Shown here one piece after another: positions 10,034 through 29,960 of a stretch of 43,955 nucleotides of DNA. The stretch comes from a virus. The position numbers were made by a program, and so were the translations under genes. The notes beneath the pieces were generated by a model. That model saw only the letters and a list, made by a program, of their open reading frames with translations. It searched no databases and was not told where the DNA came from. The stretch's first letter is position 1; each line of letters begins with the position of its first letter. Location: UHGV virus genome UHGV-0152227. One strand, 5' to 3'.

Positions 10034-10055
10034 GCCCGCGTTGCGGGCTTTTTTG
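10034..10055 (+). terminator. Rho-independent terminator
   Basis: GCCCGC-gttg-CGGGC followed by TTTTTTG. Confidence 0.8.
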
Positions 10056-10126: not shown

Positions 10127-10288
10127 ATGAAAAAAGCATTTGCTGCACTGTTCGTTTTGTTGTCTCTGGTAGCTTCAACTCAGGCCTTTGCCGGTCGTTG
10201 TCAGCACGACAGCGATACTGCCGCTGACGGCTCCCGCTGCGGTGGGCGTTCTGCGGATTCCCGCCCTGGCGGCGGTGGCATTCGTTAA
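10127..10288 (+). CDS. Small secreted peptide (signal peptide plus ~31-aa Cys/Gly/Asp-rich mature part)
   Basis: ATG 10127; MKKAFAALFVLLSLVASTQAFA signal-like N-terminus; flanked by terminators; weak RBS. Confidence 0.45.
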   Translation: MKKAFAALFVLLSLVASTQAFAGRCQHDSDTAADGSRCGGRSADSRPGGGGIR

Positions 10289-10294
10289 AAACAA

Positions 10295-10310
10295 GGCCGC
10301 GAAAGCGGCC
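10295..10310. terminator. Hairpin GGCCGC-gaaa-GCGGCC; terminator for the minus-strand late operon, possibly bidirectional
   Basis: Perfect 6-bp stem; T-run on the minus strand (complement of AAAAACAA). Confidence 0.55.
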
Positions 10311-10311
10311 T

Positions 10312-10323
10312 GTGACATGTCAC
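10312..10323. repeat. 12-bp perfect palindrome GTGACATGTCAC, copy 1 of 3
   Basis: Exact match to copies at 27684-27695 and 29949-29960; lies 1 nt downstream of the stop of gene 10325-10885. Confidence 0.9.
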
Positions 10324-10324
10324 A

Positions 10325-10885
10325 CTACATTGATATATGATTCATAAAGTAGCTTAAAGATTTACTTCCCAGAAAAGAAATTTCTTTTCCTGGATATGTC
10401 GCAATAATTGAGCATGACTTATCCCCGTTAGAGGTAACAAATCCTGAATAACCTACTTGTTCTTTACCATTTTGTTGCTTGGCTAAAAAGTAGAGGTAGC
10501 TTATCTTTTTGCCCTCTGGGTAAAACTCTGCCAAACCAGTATCGGTGATTGAATATTTTATTCTCCCGCCTTGAGTAACGTTTTCCATCTCAAGTTTAGC
10601 TATGTCTTTTCTGTTGTATTCAGCATTGATTTTCCTTTCGAAATCAATGTTGTTTTCAAATGAGTAGGAAGCAACAGTCTGAATAGATGGGAACACGTTT
10701 ATCTGGATGCCTCCACAGTCGGCACAGGTATAAAGGTATGAATCAGATGGAATCCCCATAAAAGAAAACTGAGTTACCTTAAATTTATCGCTATCTCCAA
10801 AGTATTGAAGTTCGCATTTAACATTTTGCCCTGCAAAAGAAAATGCAGACATCAATATTGAAACAAAAAATATAATTGCCTTCAT
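10325..10885 (-). CDS. Secreted protein of unknown function, last gene of the late operon (possible moron or exclusion factor)
   Basis: N-terminal signal peptide MKAIIFFVSILMSAFSFA; AT-rich; abuts stop of upstream virion gene. Confidence 0.6.
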   Translation of the reverse strand: MKAIIFFVSILMSAFSFAGQNVKCELQYFGDSDKFKVTQFSFMGIPSDSYLYTCADCGGIQINVFPSIQTVASYSFENNIDFERKINAEYNRKDIAKLEMENVTQGGRIKYSITDTGLAEFYPEGKKISYLYFLAKQQNGKEQVGYSGFVTSNGDKSCSIIATYPGKEISFLGSKSLSYFMNHISM

Positions 10886-24426: not shown

Positions 24427-24723
24427 TCACTCCTGTTCACTGGCCTCTTTGGCCATCTTCAAATACTGTTCAGGGCAATGCGCCATAACGCGCTGAAACA
24501 GTTCCAGCGCCAGATTGCGTTGCCCCTCATTAAATGCCATTGCCATAGCATCCATCGGAGAGATAGCGGAAAACACCCGGCCTTTCTCCAGCACCGACCA
24601 GACAACGCGACGCCCCTGTTCACTGCTCATGACAAAGCGAATGTCATCAATTTCACGCTGTGCCATGTCACGTTGCTTACGGGCGTTTTCTTCTTTCAGT
24701 TGATCGTCTTCGTAATCTGTCAT
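24427..24723 (-). CDS. Small head-module protein, 98 aa
   Basis: ATGA overlap with portal stop; acidic. Confidence 0.5.
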   Translation of the reverse strand: MTDYEDDQLKEENARKQRDMAQREIDDIRFVMSSEQGRRVVWSVLEKGRVFSAISPMDAMAMAFNEGQRNLALELFQRVMAHCPEQYLKMAKEASEQE

Positions 24724-26688: not shown

Positions 26689-26725
26689 TTGACATTTAAC
26701 GCACAAATTATTACCTTTAGGGTAA
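26689..26725 (+). promoter_or_regulatory. Early-type promoter-operator (TTGACA ... ATTATTACCTTTAGGGTAA) facing the tRNA and moron
   Basis: Near-duplicate of the PL-like promoter architecture at 37395-37437; operator 26711-26725. Confidence 0.55.
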
Positions 26726-27047
26726 GTAAATGGTTCATTCCGGTTATTAACCTGACTGGCTTGTCGTTAAATTGAACAGGTGGAGTGAGCTTTTATTTTG
26801 AGCAGTACGGCGTATGGCACATGCGCCGATAGCGGTCTGGATACGTTTAAGGGGCTCCCTCCCTTGCTCGGGCAAACGAACCAGGTAGCCGGAATGTGCA
26901 AGTCGAGCGGTTTTATTCCGCGCACGGGGATTCACCATCCCGGCGATTCGGTGTGACGCCTCGGAAGAGACGAGGGTACAACGATGAGAGCATTTATGGA
27001 GCCGCGACAAAGTGTGGCGCCTTAACAGGCTAAGTGCTCTCAGCGTT

Positions 27048-27124
27048 GTGGCATTAGCTCAGTTGGACAGAGCAACCGCCTTCTAAGCGGTTGGTCGCAG
27101 GTTCGAATCCTGCATGCCACGCCA
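27048..27124 (+). tRNA. tRNA-Arg (anticodon UCU, reads AGA)
   Basis: 77 nt folded by hand: acceptor GTGGCAT/ATGCCAC, D-arm GCTC...GAGC, anticodon loop CTTCTAA, T-arm GCAGG-TTCGAAT-CCTGC, encoded CCA; differs from chromosomal argU. Confidence 0.9.
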
Positions 27125-27322: not shown

Positions 27323-27679
27323 ATGAACGACCAGCAAATCGAAAAAGAAATCGTTGAGAAAGGCAAAACCGCTCCGCGAGTTACGCCTCAATATATCGAA
27401 AGCATCATTCTTGAAGAGCATTTCTTTACTGCTTATGACGGCATTCGTGCTGCCAATATGGGAGTTGGCGATTCATGGACAGCGCATAAATCTACAGACC
27501 TCCTGACTTTCTGCGTATTGGTACTGAAGAATGGCTTCACCGTCACCGGAGAGAGTGCCTGTGCAAGTCCGGAAAATTTTGATGCAGAAATTGGTCGGAA
27601 GATTGCCCGGCAGAATGCTGTAAACAAAATCTGGATGCTCGAAGGTTACTTGCTGAAGCAGAAGTTAAGCGAGCAATAA
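27323..27679 (+). CDS. Moron protein, 118 aa, possibly phage Gp49/Sf6 gene 66-like family (tentative)
   Basis: ATG 27323 with AAGGTGAG RBS; opposite strand to flanking terminase and portal; own terminator. Confidence 0.6.
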   Translation: MNDQQIEKEIVEKGKTAPRVTPQYIESIILEEHFFTAYDGIRAANMGVGDSWTAHKSTDLLTFCVLVLKNGFTVTGESACASPENFDAEIGRKIARQNAVNKIWMLEGYLLKQKLSEQ

Positions 27680-27683
27680 CACC

Positions 27684-27695
27684 GTGACATGTCAC
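27684..27695. repeat. 12-bp perfect palindrome GTGACATGTCAC, copy 2 of 3
   Basis: Exact; 5 nt after the stop of gene 27323-27679 and downstream of the large terminase. Confidence 0.9.
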
Positions 27696-27700
27696 AAACA

Positions 27701-27727
27701 GCCAGCCGATGAGCTGGCTTTGTTTTA
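27701..27727. terminator. Terminator hairpin, probably bidirectional
   Basis: GCCAGC-cgatga-GCTGGC followed by TTTGTTTTA; T-rich on the complement too. Confidence 0.65.
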
Positions 27728-27769
27728 TCCTCATCAGAGGATATCAACGACATTATCCCCACTAGCGGA

Positions 27770-29245
27770 TTAAGCATAGGGATCGTAATCTGTGATGGCC
27801 TTGCCTTGCTGGTTCTGCTGCCCGGGAATTCGCAGACGCTTTGACACAGGGAAAGCAAACGTCAGCAGTAGCGCATCGCCTTTACCAGGAGAACGCCCAA
27901 GCCGCTCCTTGATATCTTCCTTCGGTTCGATAACGATTTTACCGTCCACTCGAACTTTATACTCTGCCGCCGACAGGTCGTCCGCTGTTTCCTGGTCATC
28001 CAGCATCCCGCCCAGCCTCAGCCATGTCTTGCATGAGTTGAACATCTCCCCACGCTTGTTGAGCATCTGCGGGTCAGTAGACGCGCCACCGAACGGAACA
28101 AGTTGCCATGTGCGCCCCCAACCATCACCGATTGACTTCAGACCGGTACCGTAACCGAAGTCGATGAACACCGCGTCAGCCTGATACTGGTCTTCAAAGT
28201 CAGCGATACGCTTCGCCATAATCAGATCGTCGGTGGTCTTGTTACCAGTCCATAGCACCTTACTGTGCAGCCCCTGCCGCAGGTATATCACAGCGTCATC
28301 AACGCCGGAGTATGCCGGGTCAACGCCGATTATCACCGGAGCATGCGCCACCTGCGCAGCGGTTACCACCCGTTTCATTGCCTCATCAGTAAGACCGGTA
28401 GGGATAAACTGCAATTCAGATGCATCAGGGAATATGCCGCGCACACGGATTTTAACGAAGTCGCTATCTTCCCCGTAGTCATCAACCCATTTCTGCAACT
28501 GCTGTTTGTTAGTGCCTTCCACCGTCCGGCTGTCAATCTGCGCAGTTTTCCAGCGGTGTTTATATTTGCGGAAACATTCGCGGAAACGCCCGGTGTTACG
28601 AGTAGGGTTTCCGAACGCCACCCAGATAATCTCAGTGTCTTCGTCCGTAAGCGCACCCTCAGCAACTTCCCACACCAGATCCGCAATGTTCGACGCTTCA
28701 TCGAATACCACGATGATGCGTTTGCGCTCGTTGTGTAGTCCGGCGAATGCCTCAGTGTTGTGCTCAGACCAGGGGATTGCGTCAGCTCGCCACCGCTTGT
28801 CGTGCCCAGGATCATTGCTGTACATCGCGGTAGCGGTACAGGTAAACCAGTCTTTCGTGATAGCAAGGTTCGACCACTTGATAATTTCCGGCCAGGTCTT
28901 CGTTCGTAGCTGGTTGTCGGTGTTGGCGGTCACCACGACCTTACAATCCTCGCAAGTGGACATGCCCCAGTTGATCAGCATTGAGATGAATGCGGATTTA
29001 CCAATACCGTGACCAGAAGCGCGTGCCAGCATAAGCGGCTGATAGCGCGTCTCTGGATTCTGCAGGTGATCACGTATCTCTCGGAACGCATCAGCCTGCC
29101 ACTGACGTGGGCCGGTGGCATGTGCCAGTTCAGTCCCCTCTTCCCCCCACGGGAACGCATAGAGGGCATAGCCAAGCGGATCGTGAGTGAACCCTGCAAT
29201 ATCCTCGATCAACTGCTCTTCAGGAGATAACGCTGTATCTGTCAC
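27770..29245 (-). CDS. Terminase large subunit
   Basis: 491 aa; ATPase and nuclease-type organisation; GTG start overlapping small-terminase stop (GTGA). Confidence 0.85.
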   Translation of the reverse strand: MTDTALSPEEQLIEDIAGFTHDPLGYALYAFPWGEEGTELAHATGPRQWQADAFREIRDHLQNPETRYQPLMLARASGHGIGKSAFISMLINWGMSTCEDCKVVVTANTDNQLRTKTWPEIIKWSNLAITKDWFTCTATAMYSNDPGHDKRWRADAIPWSEHNTEAFAGLHNERKRIIVVFDEASNIADLVWEVAEGALTDEDTEIIWVAFGNPTRNTGRFRECFRKYKHRWKTAQIDSRTVEGTNKQQLQKWVDDYGEDSDFVKIRVRGIFPDASELQFIPTGLTDEAMKRVVTAAQVAHAPVIIGVDPAYSGVDDAVIYLRQGLHSKVLWTGNKTTDDLIMAKRIADFEDQYQADAVFIDFGYGTGLKSIGDGWGRTWQLVPFGGASTDPQMLNKRGEMFNSCKTWLRLGGMLDDQETADDLSAAEYKVRVDGKIVIEPKEDIKERLGRSPGKGDALLLTFAFPVSKRLRIPGQQNQQGKAITDYDPYA

Positions 29246-29838
29246 TGATTACCATCCTGACGTTCTTTGAGTCGCTTCCTGGCTGCTGCTATGCGATCAG
29301 CAATTGTCACATTCACATTAACATCCAGACGTTCTTTGAACGCGTTGACATCAACATGCTTACCAATCAGCTCAAGGTTCTTCACCTTGTCAGGCCATTT
29401 AATTTTTTTGAGGATTGTCTCTATCGAATCCTCGTTCATGTTCATGATGGTCGATGACAGATCAAAGCCACTAAGCGTAGTGCGCCAGATTTTCGGCCAC
29501 TCGCGGATTGGCTTAAGGCTCCCATCGTCGTTGAGGATGTCGATCACATCCATCTGGTCGATCTCCACCAGGCGCATAAGAACGTAATCGGCACTGACGC
29601 GCATTCGTTTGTTGCGCTCCTCCATCAGCTCGGCAATCCGTTTTTGAATGCGTTCATCGCGCATCATGACACTGGCTTTAACTGCCGCTGTATTTGGGGA
29701 GAATCCTGCGTTAATCGCTGCCTGAGTCTGGTTTTCAGGCGTTTTGATGTATGACTGGCAATAAGCCTCCTGCATTGCTGTTAGTGGCTTAAATTGCGTT
29801 GATTTGCGTTTATAGGTTTTAGGTTCAGCAGGCATCAT
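29242..29838 (-). CDS. Terminase small subunit (P27/Terminase_2-like)
   Basis: Motifs QEAYCQSYIKTPENQTQAAINAGFSPNTAAVKAS; start taken at first ATG (29838); ORF-track TTG at 29916 is a possible alternative. Confidence 0.7.
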   Translation of the reverse strand: MMPAEPKTYKRKSTQFKPLTAMQEAYCQSYIKTPENQTQAAINAGFSPNTAAVKASVMMRDERIQKRIAELMEERNKRMRVSADYVLMRLVEIDQMDVIDILNDDGSLKPIREWPKIWRTTLSGFDLSSTIMNMNEDSIETILKKIKWPDKVKNLELIGKHVDVNAFKERLDVNVNVTIADRIAAARKRLKERQDGNQ

Positions 29839-29948
29839 AACCACCGTGGTAATAGTTACCGTTGTGGTAATAGTACCATGCAAAATAAAGCCGCCATAGT
29901 TGGCGGCAGTATTCAAAACCCATCAAATTCATCATGCATAATCTACTC

Positions 29949-29960
29949 GTGACATGTCAC
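29949..29960. repeat. 12-bp perfect palindrome GTGACATGTCAC, copy 3 of 3
   Basis: Exact; overlaps the stop codon of gene 29957-30295, just upstream of the terminase operon. Confidence 0.9.

Follow-up and report, generated by a model that had tools for sequence, protein, structure and literature searches.

A conserved 12-bp palindrome at three operon ends of an epsilon15-like prophage, candidate operator of a linked, predicted ribbon-helix-helix regulator

The window analyzed here, the whole 43,955-nucleotide stretch of virus genome UHGV-0152227, is an Escherichia coli prophage of the epsilon15/phiV10 type (Uetakevirus), integrated beside guaA, with its late genes on the minus strand. It carries three copies of a palindrome, GTGACATGTCAC, each at the end of a transcription unit. 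We propose that this 12-mer is probably the cognate operator of a 112-amino acid (aa) regulator encoded by the phage itself, a predicted ribbon-helix-helix (RHH) protein with a four-cysteine (Cys4) module, whose gene ends within one of the copies. The assignment rests on the conservation of the three sites, the linkage of the motif to the regulator gene, the adjacency to intrinsic terminators, and the predicted RHH fold.

Exactly three copies of the 12-mer occur in the window, at 10312-10323, 27684-27695 and 29949-29960, as a preliminary description of this DNA had reported; they are called copies 1, 2 and 3, or sites b, a and c, respectively. No copy arose in any of 100 dinucleotide-preserving shuffles of the window, and a self-complementary 12-mer is expected only ~0.003 times per 44 kb. 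The reported placement of the copies relative to the stop codons of the last late gene, of the moron and the large terminase (TerL), and of the gene upstream of the small terminase (TerS) also holds on reading the sequence. Allowing up to two mismatches adds only two further matches in the window, both in unrelated coding sequence. A one-mismatch copy at 24660-24671, GTGCCATGTCAC, lies within a late coding region. Since 44 related loci read GTGACATGGCAC at that position, it seems to be a coincidence of the coding sequence and not a fourth site.

The core kept across relatives is GTGAC-N2-GTCAC. The half-sites are essentially invariant, the exceptions being Aeromonas and L164 variants, and the central dinucleotide is lineage-specific and the same in all copies of one genome (three times TG in phage N15, three times AT in phage ZF40). 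The outer T/A pair is present only at copy 1, copies 2 and 3 carrying a C ahead of the G, and is not conserved. Copies 1 and 3 do share the longer GTGACATGTCACACTA, as had been pointed out, but this 4-nt extension is incidental, because relatives do not conserve it (the closest prophage, L002, reads GTGACATGTCACgttcc at site 1). The degenerate form GTGACNNGTCAC is expected about 0.003-0.005 times per 3-5 kb locus.

The same 12-mer is found at three syntenic positions, with differing intergenic flanks, in phiV10, epsilon15, Enterobacter phage Tyrion and the closest E. coli prophage; one of the phiV10 copies differs by a single mismatch and runs across the ends of the record. Related loci were also collected from IMG/VR by way of the proteins neighboring each palindrome site. 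Site c is exact in 76/78 of these loci, as it is in epsilon15 and Tyrion but, by one mismatch, not in phiV10; site a is exact in 51 of 74, others having one-mismatch variants or a different terminator without the palindrome, and site b in 46 of 59, with one mismatch in five more. Within 1.36 Mb of loci around the regulator there are 129 exact copies, all but one of them at sites c and a.

What surrounds the sites is far less constant. At site b, the palindrome is unchanged between upstream genes of more than 10 kinds and terminator hairpins of at least five, and at site a different morons all terminate as TAA-CACC-palindrome. At site c an invariant GTGTGACATGTCACGA is followed by three kinds of downstream sequence. 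In seven loci (L012, L014, L030, L033, L037, L056 and L073) a small open reading frame (ORF) with its own ribosome-binding site is inserted directly after GTGACATGTCACGA, which pushes terminator c and TerS ~186 nt further off.

A search of related prophages had been proposed as a check, and in them the mosaic junctions coincide with palindrome edges. This agrees with the proposal that the palindrome marks a module-exchange boundary, but the same junctions are equally expected if a functional site is kept while its neighbors are swapped. The palindrome could instead be a recombination linker at module boundaries, or a pac signal flanking the terminase genes. Identity between relatives does stop at the palindrome edge at site b (the window against L002, and the more than 10 upstream genes), at site a (several morons) and at site c (the three downstream kinds), and copies a and c do flank the TerS-TerL pair. 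We nevertheless consider such a role most unlikely: an identity of 12 bp is too short to drive homologous exchange alone, the strict palindromy and genome-specific center would go unexplained, and motifs of this family accompany the regulator gene, distant from terS, even where the terminases are unrelated and the ends are of the cos type (N15, P2-like). A packaging site (pac or cos) was rejected on positional grounds, since the N15 cos ends are at position 1 and its motif copies at 28.5, 33.2 and 39.3 kb, and the motif is also distant from the terminase in the P2-like Yersinia phage and in ZF40. The bracketing of the terminase module is correct as geometry but not in the meaning given to it, as copies 2 and 3 end two separate units, the moron and the early-right operon.

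The regulator matches no Pfam family. It belongs to PHROG 536, labeled 'transcriptional regulator' in PHROGs, a small family with 185 cluster representatives among 1.84 billion proteins; in NCBIfam it matches YbfE, at only 0.074. AlphaFold2, given a diverse alignment, returned a confident model (predicted local distance difference test, pLDDT, 92.5) with a basic N-terminal helix, an extended segment followed by two helices, and a Cys-rich loop region; the conserved cysteines are C79, C82, C91 and C99. On this model the N-terminal half is predicted to be an RHH domain, with the order beta-strand-helix-helix. A site for a dimeric helix-turn-helix protein had been one of the suggestions for the palindrome. 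A protein site is supported, but the likely protein is this RHH/zinc regulator encoded beside copy 3, not one of the helix-turn-helix class.

The motif accompanies the regulator gene well outside the uetakeviruses. It lies across the regulator stop in N15 and phiKO2 (GTGACTGGTCAC) and in a Yersinia P2-like phage (GTGACGCGTCAC), and in the Pectobacterium myovirus ZF40 GTGACATGTCAC itself is found 2 nt past the stop, with two more copies flanking the cI-cro region. Where motif and stop codon overlap, the register is G-TGA-C. Two Vibrio phages have GTGACACGTCAC and GTGACCCGTCAC, 226-235 nt downstream of the regulator stop and ~290 nt upstream of the holin gene. One Aeromonas phage has a two-mismatch copy across the stop, and another (A051) an exact GTGACCGGTCAC 1.3 kb downstream. 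The whole N15 genome contains exactly three copies of its own variant: across the gp46 stop, inside repA, and between gene 33 and a terminator. As an independent check we also obtained contigs for nine divergent PHROG 536 members, 27-40% identical to the window protein; the motif is across the stop codon, again as G-TGA-C, in three of them, the variant GTGTCCGGTCAC occurs twice in one, and in another the motif is 124 nt upstream of the stop. Altogether, gene and motif co-occur in 17 of the 21 lineages sampled. Three IMG/VR scans seeded with distant homologues found no related loci.

Some features of these distant relatives are worth recording. The copies are at 28550, 33237 and 39269 in N15 (L094) and at 5125, 7622 and 14944 in ZF40 (L005), three each, as in the uetakeviruses; in both phages two of them flank the immunity/early control region, within or near early genes and not at terminators. 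In Yersinia phage vB_YenM_31.17 (L006) a LexA-box-like CTGT-N8-ACAG stands by a TATAAT at 10040-10055, ~100 nt downstream of the regulator stop and motif, which suggests an SOS-controlled gene there, by analogy with tum of phage 186. In one metagenomic contig (L162, 866-1258) a regulator homologue (P0323) is followed directly by a gene with a Phage_antitermQ domain, an arrangement that puts the family where early and late genes meet, though as a protein separate from Q.

The palindrome might instead be the site of a host DNA-binding protein common to Enterobacteriaceae, Vibrio and Aeromonas, MatP with its site matS being the closest look-alike, in which case the phage would recruit or evade a nucleoid factor. 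We regard this as quite unlikely. The spacer is 2 bp in every locus examined and never 3, the motif tracks one phage gene rather than a host clade, and centers differ among phages that share E. coli as host (TG in N15, AT in the uetakeviruses). CRP is excluded too: the half-site likeness noted earlier fails on spacing, TGTGA and TCACA being 4 nt apart here against the 6 required by the 22-bp site (TGTGA-N6-TCACA), and the outer bases it depends on are not conserved.

The likeness to MatP/matS nonetheless deserves attention. matS is a 13-bp site, GTGACRNYGTCAC, with a 3-nt spacer (PMC6907758). Its half-sites, GTGAC and GTCAC, are identical to those of the phage motif, and both systems have several dispersed sites per replicon; as an identity for the palindrome matS was rejected, because all copies in all loci have the 2-nt spacer and no N3 form was found. 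MatP, an RHH protein with a long helix, is among the top structural matches to the regulator model, aligning over 73 residues with 18% identity. There is no detectable sequence similarity, however, and the regulator lacks the N-terminal four-helix bundle of MatP, having a predicted zinc module instead. MatP homology (PF06303/PF17414) was accordingly rejected (BLASTP E=12, hhalign probability 0.1-0.2%, no Pfam match). The prophage site beside guaA is, we assume, outside the Ter macrodomain, the part of the E. coli chromosome that MatP organizes and to which matS is confined.

Read along the transcript ending at each of them, all three copies in the window come after a stop codon and before an intrinsic terminator. 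We scored this adjacency in the distinct contexts of the related loci against 600 random positions from the same loci. A terminator-like hairpin is found within 50 nt in 66/79 contexts of sites c and a and in 35/40 of site b (random positions, 38/600), and within 5 nt in 34/79 and 27/40 (random positions, 5/600). The hairpin sequences vary while the adjoining palindrome stays constant. The palindrome precedes the expected polymerase pause by roughly 30-45 nt at terminators a and b, and at c by about 70 nt.

All three copies are thus transcribed as the final bases ahead of a terminator hairpin, and minimum free energy folds show a separate 4-bp hairpin beside the terminator stem, as might be expected of an RNA element in the 3' untranslated region, a hairpin or protein-binding motif tuning mRNA stability, processing or termination. 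This reading, close to the processing signal suggested earlier, is poorly supported, and we judge it very unlikely. The palindrome hairpin, at only -1.2 kcal/mol, is not more stable than those of shuffles, and relatives hold both half-sites exactly around centers that are not complementary (TG, AC, CC, AG), with no compensatory double changes among more than 170 copies. Copies in ZF40 and N15, moreover, lie within coding regions in either orientation, and a symmetry independent of the direction of transcription is what a dimeric DNA-binding protein requires. With so weak a fold the palindrome was also rejected as an intrinsic terminator; the neighboring hairpins are the terminators.

At site c the arrangement is especially compact (Table 1). 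The 118 nt between the regulator stop and the TerS start hold copy c, a weak promoter-like match, a strong terminator, two ATTACC repeats and the TerS ribosome-binding site. The ORF finder had started TerS at TTG 29916, but alignment with the TerS leaders of relatives places the start at ATG 29838, so that the terminator after copy 3, like the operators, is intergenic. The stretch from terminator c to the TerS Shine-Dalgarno is only ~35 nt long and is occupied by the two ATTACC operators; as this leaves no room for an ordinary promoter, the TerS mRNA probably has to pass through terminator c.

Table 1. Features at and around the three palindrome copies of the window, from site c to site b
Feature	Position	Strand	Remarks
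Regulator gene, 112 aa	29957..30295	-	PHROG 536; homologue of epsilon15 gp49, phiV10 gp55 and N15 gp46
Copy c, palindrome GTGACATGTCAC	29949..29960		Holds the TGA stop (29957-29959) of the 112-aa regulator gene upstream of TerS
Sigma-70-like promoter match, GTGACA-18-CATGAT	29931..29960	-	9/12; the left half of copy c forms the -35 hexamer
Intrinsic terminator, GCCGCCAACTATGGCGGC + T-tract	29881..29907	-	Separates copy c from TerS; also kept in epsilon15, Tyrion and phiV10
Two operator-like repeats, ATTACC-N5-GGTAAY	29837..29871		Overlap the TerS Shine-Dalgarno and start codon
Small terminase subunit (TerS)	29242..29838	-	Terminase_2; start corrected to ATG 29838, 198 aa
Large terminase subunit (TerL)	27770..29245	-	Stop at 27770
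Moron terminator, AGCCAGCCGATGAGCTGGCT + TTTGTTTTAT	27700..27729	+	Detected on the plus strand only; weak toward TerL
Copy a, palindrome	27684..27695		4 nt past the moron TAA (27677-27679), 4 nt ahead of the terminator hairpin; upstream of the TerL stop
Moron, Gp49/Sf6 gene 66 family	27323..27679	+	PF13876, 1.7e-34; convergent with TerL
Last late-operon gene, variable	10325..10885	-	PHROG 11983, 186 aa
Copy b, palindrome	10312..10323		Ends 1 nt short of the TAG (10325-10327) of the last late ORF; abuts the terminator hairpin
Terminator of the head-tail operon, AGGCCGCTTTCGCGGCCT + TGTTTTT	10284..10311	-	3' end of the operon

The promoter-like match raises the possibility that copy c is chiefly the -35 element (GTGACA) of a constitutive promoter for a short terminated leader, like lambda pR'/tR', with the other copies functionally unrelated. 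The scan also matches GTGACA-18-TATGAT at copy b, and epsilon15 and Tyrion retain GTGACA-17-TAAATT as the counterpart at copy c though their spacers differ. The number of such matches, however, is not above that in shuffles; the -10 element is missing in the loci with an ORF after copy c, in phiV10 site b and at site a; and neither the invariant second half of the palindrome nor its tracking of the regulator gene would be explained. The significance of the match at copy c is uncertain, and this reading of the palindrome is unlikely.

If the 12-mer is the regulator's operator, as we favor, the following mechanism can be envisioned. The regulator would bind as an RHH dimer, its beta-ribbon lying in the major groove over the two GTGAC half-sites, 2 bp apart, by analogy with other RHH proteins, and carry its Cys4 module at the C-terminus. 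As the last product of the early-right operon, it would be made only once lytic development has begun, and would then occupy three stop codon-terminator sites: the end of its own operon before TerS, the moron end facing TerL, and the end of the head-tail operon. There it would act on RNA polymerase reaching those terminators. More specifically, an RHH-zinc protein on a 12-bp site upstream of terminators may be a DNA-tethered termination modulator that chooses between release and read-through, a tentative idea which we put forward as doubtful. In the version we prefer, read-through of the terminators before TerS and after the head-tail operon would turn on the late genes, in the manner of lambda Q, although the protein is unrelated. 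An effect of the opposite sign, with the protein as a roadblock or insulator strengthening operon ends, is nearly as likely, and we see the split between the two as roughly even. Bridging of the three sites, as by MatP, is conceivable by analogy.

Read-through is favored by the position of the regulator gene, which is that of Q in lambdoid phages, last in the early-right operon and directly before a terminator and the late genes. The tail-fiber and lysis genes lie downstream of terminator b on the same strand, and apart from a PerC-like activator no late-gene regulator, be it Q, sigma or another, is annotated in the Uetakevirus records. The likeness to the lambda module of Q, its binding element QBE, pR' and tR' extends to the order of elements after the last early-right gene (promoter-like element, intrinsic terminator, late genes), to a DNA site tens of bp upstream of the polymerase pause, and to a cysteine-rich module in the protein. 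In lambda the distance from QBE to the Q-dependent pause is ~40 nt by our estimate. Within this layout the terminator is present and conserved, but the promoter-like match (9/12) is not above shuffles and is lost with the inserted ORF. The regulator further differs from Q in lying outside any Q family, in having extra sites at the 3' ends of other operons, and in the separate Q gene that N15 and a metagenomic relative possess; membership in the Q family was rejected for want of any Pfam, NCBIfam or PDB match to Q proteins.

A number of observations weigh against our proposal, either as to the operator or as to its mode of action. The link between regulator and site is one of guilt by association in sequence comparisons, and the motif was not found for 4/9 of the divergent homologues in the sequence available (three of those four contigs measure under 1.7 kb). 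About a third of related prophages have a degraded site a or lack it altogether, and for site b this holds in about a fifth. No terminator follows the copy at the regulator stop in N15, in ZF40 or in the loci with the inserted ORF, and the extra copies in N15 and ZF40 are within early coding regions. RHH proteins are mostly repressors, which favors roadblock over read-through. Read-through at site a would yield only RNA antisense to TerL. Finally, N15 has its own Q-like antiterminator (gene 40), with a late promoter and terminator, and the gene of one distant homologue immediately precedes a Phage_antitermQ gene; to call the family simply 'the Q' of these phages would therefore be wrong.

The candidate pair can be set beside other known systems. 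Compared with RHH regulators such as Arc and Mnt of P22, CopG, MetJ, ParD/TacA and NikR, the phage protein has an extra C-terminal Cys4 module and no sequence family assignment, and its candidate operator is at the 3' end of a gene, over the stop codon, rather than in a promoter, with more copies abutting intrinsic terminators. The C-terminal part recalls the C4 zinc fingers of DksA/TraR: residues 48-109 of the family profile, with CxxCGxx(I/L)P among them, match TraR and YbiI. These matches have marginal E-values in the comparison with PDB (TraR 0.046, YbiI 0.065), and Pfam scans of eight members gave no zf-dskA_traR. Entry into the secondary channel of the polymerase in the manner of DksA/TraR is unlikely, because the helix in that alignment is the second one of the RHH domain.

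Other elements of the window lie close to the sites. The last late-operon gene is swapped for other genes in L002, phiV10, epsilon15 and Tyrion. Converging on the end of that operon is a small plus-strand ORF with a signal-peptide-like start (MKKAFAALFVLLSLVASTQAFA..., 10127-10288), whose stop is just ahead of the site-b hairpin; in that direction the hairpin has no T-tract. A tRNA-Arg gene (anticodon TCT; 27048-27124, plus strand) adjoins the Gp49/Sf6 gene 66 moron, between TerL and the portal-side genes and opposite the late operon strand. A second repeat, ATTACC-N5-GGTAAT (0-1 mismatch), is unrelated to the palindrome and occurs at 29837-29871, 26710-26726, 7811-7827, 34299-34377, 36648-36664 and 37360-37438. 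It is found at the 5' ends of the terminase, head-tail and tail-fiber units and clusters in the immunity region, and the epsilon15 record calls it a repressor site. The palindrome, in contrast, is at 3' ends.

The searchable literature, which did not cover the epsilon15 genome paper, yielded no description of the 12-mer or of the regulator's function; the ZX5 paper makes no mention of the 12-mer, and nothing relevant was found on N15 gp46 or on Uetakevirus late regulation. As it stands, this appears to be an undescribed operator-regulator pair, still a candidate, of a familiar structural class. What is unusual is the placement of the candidate operator over its regulator's own stop codon, the copies flush with terminators, and the identity of the half-sites with those of matS.

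Phages of the epsilon15/phiV10 group are common prophages and are used in the typing and detection of Salmonella and E. coli O157. Their late-gene control is not annotated in the phage records we fetched, and we found no account of it in the literature; a specific candidate protein-site pair can now be named for the group. Telomere phages (N15, phiKO2), P2-like phages, a Pectobacterium myovirus, and Vibrio and Aeromonas phages have the pair too, so that any function it has would be widely applicable. The layout, with the operator over the stop codon and flush with the terminator, could reveal a new antitermination route or a protein-reinforced operon boundary, and with a site nearly identical to matS one may ask whether there is cross-talk with the host chromosome-organizing machinery, or descent from it. 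Should the regulator be the termination modulator considered above, epsilon15-like phages would have a Q-like early-to-late switch of unrelated fold, whose DNA recognition would be a one-base-shorter cousin of that between MatP and matS.

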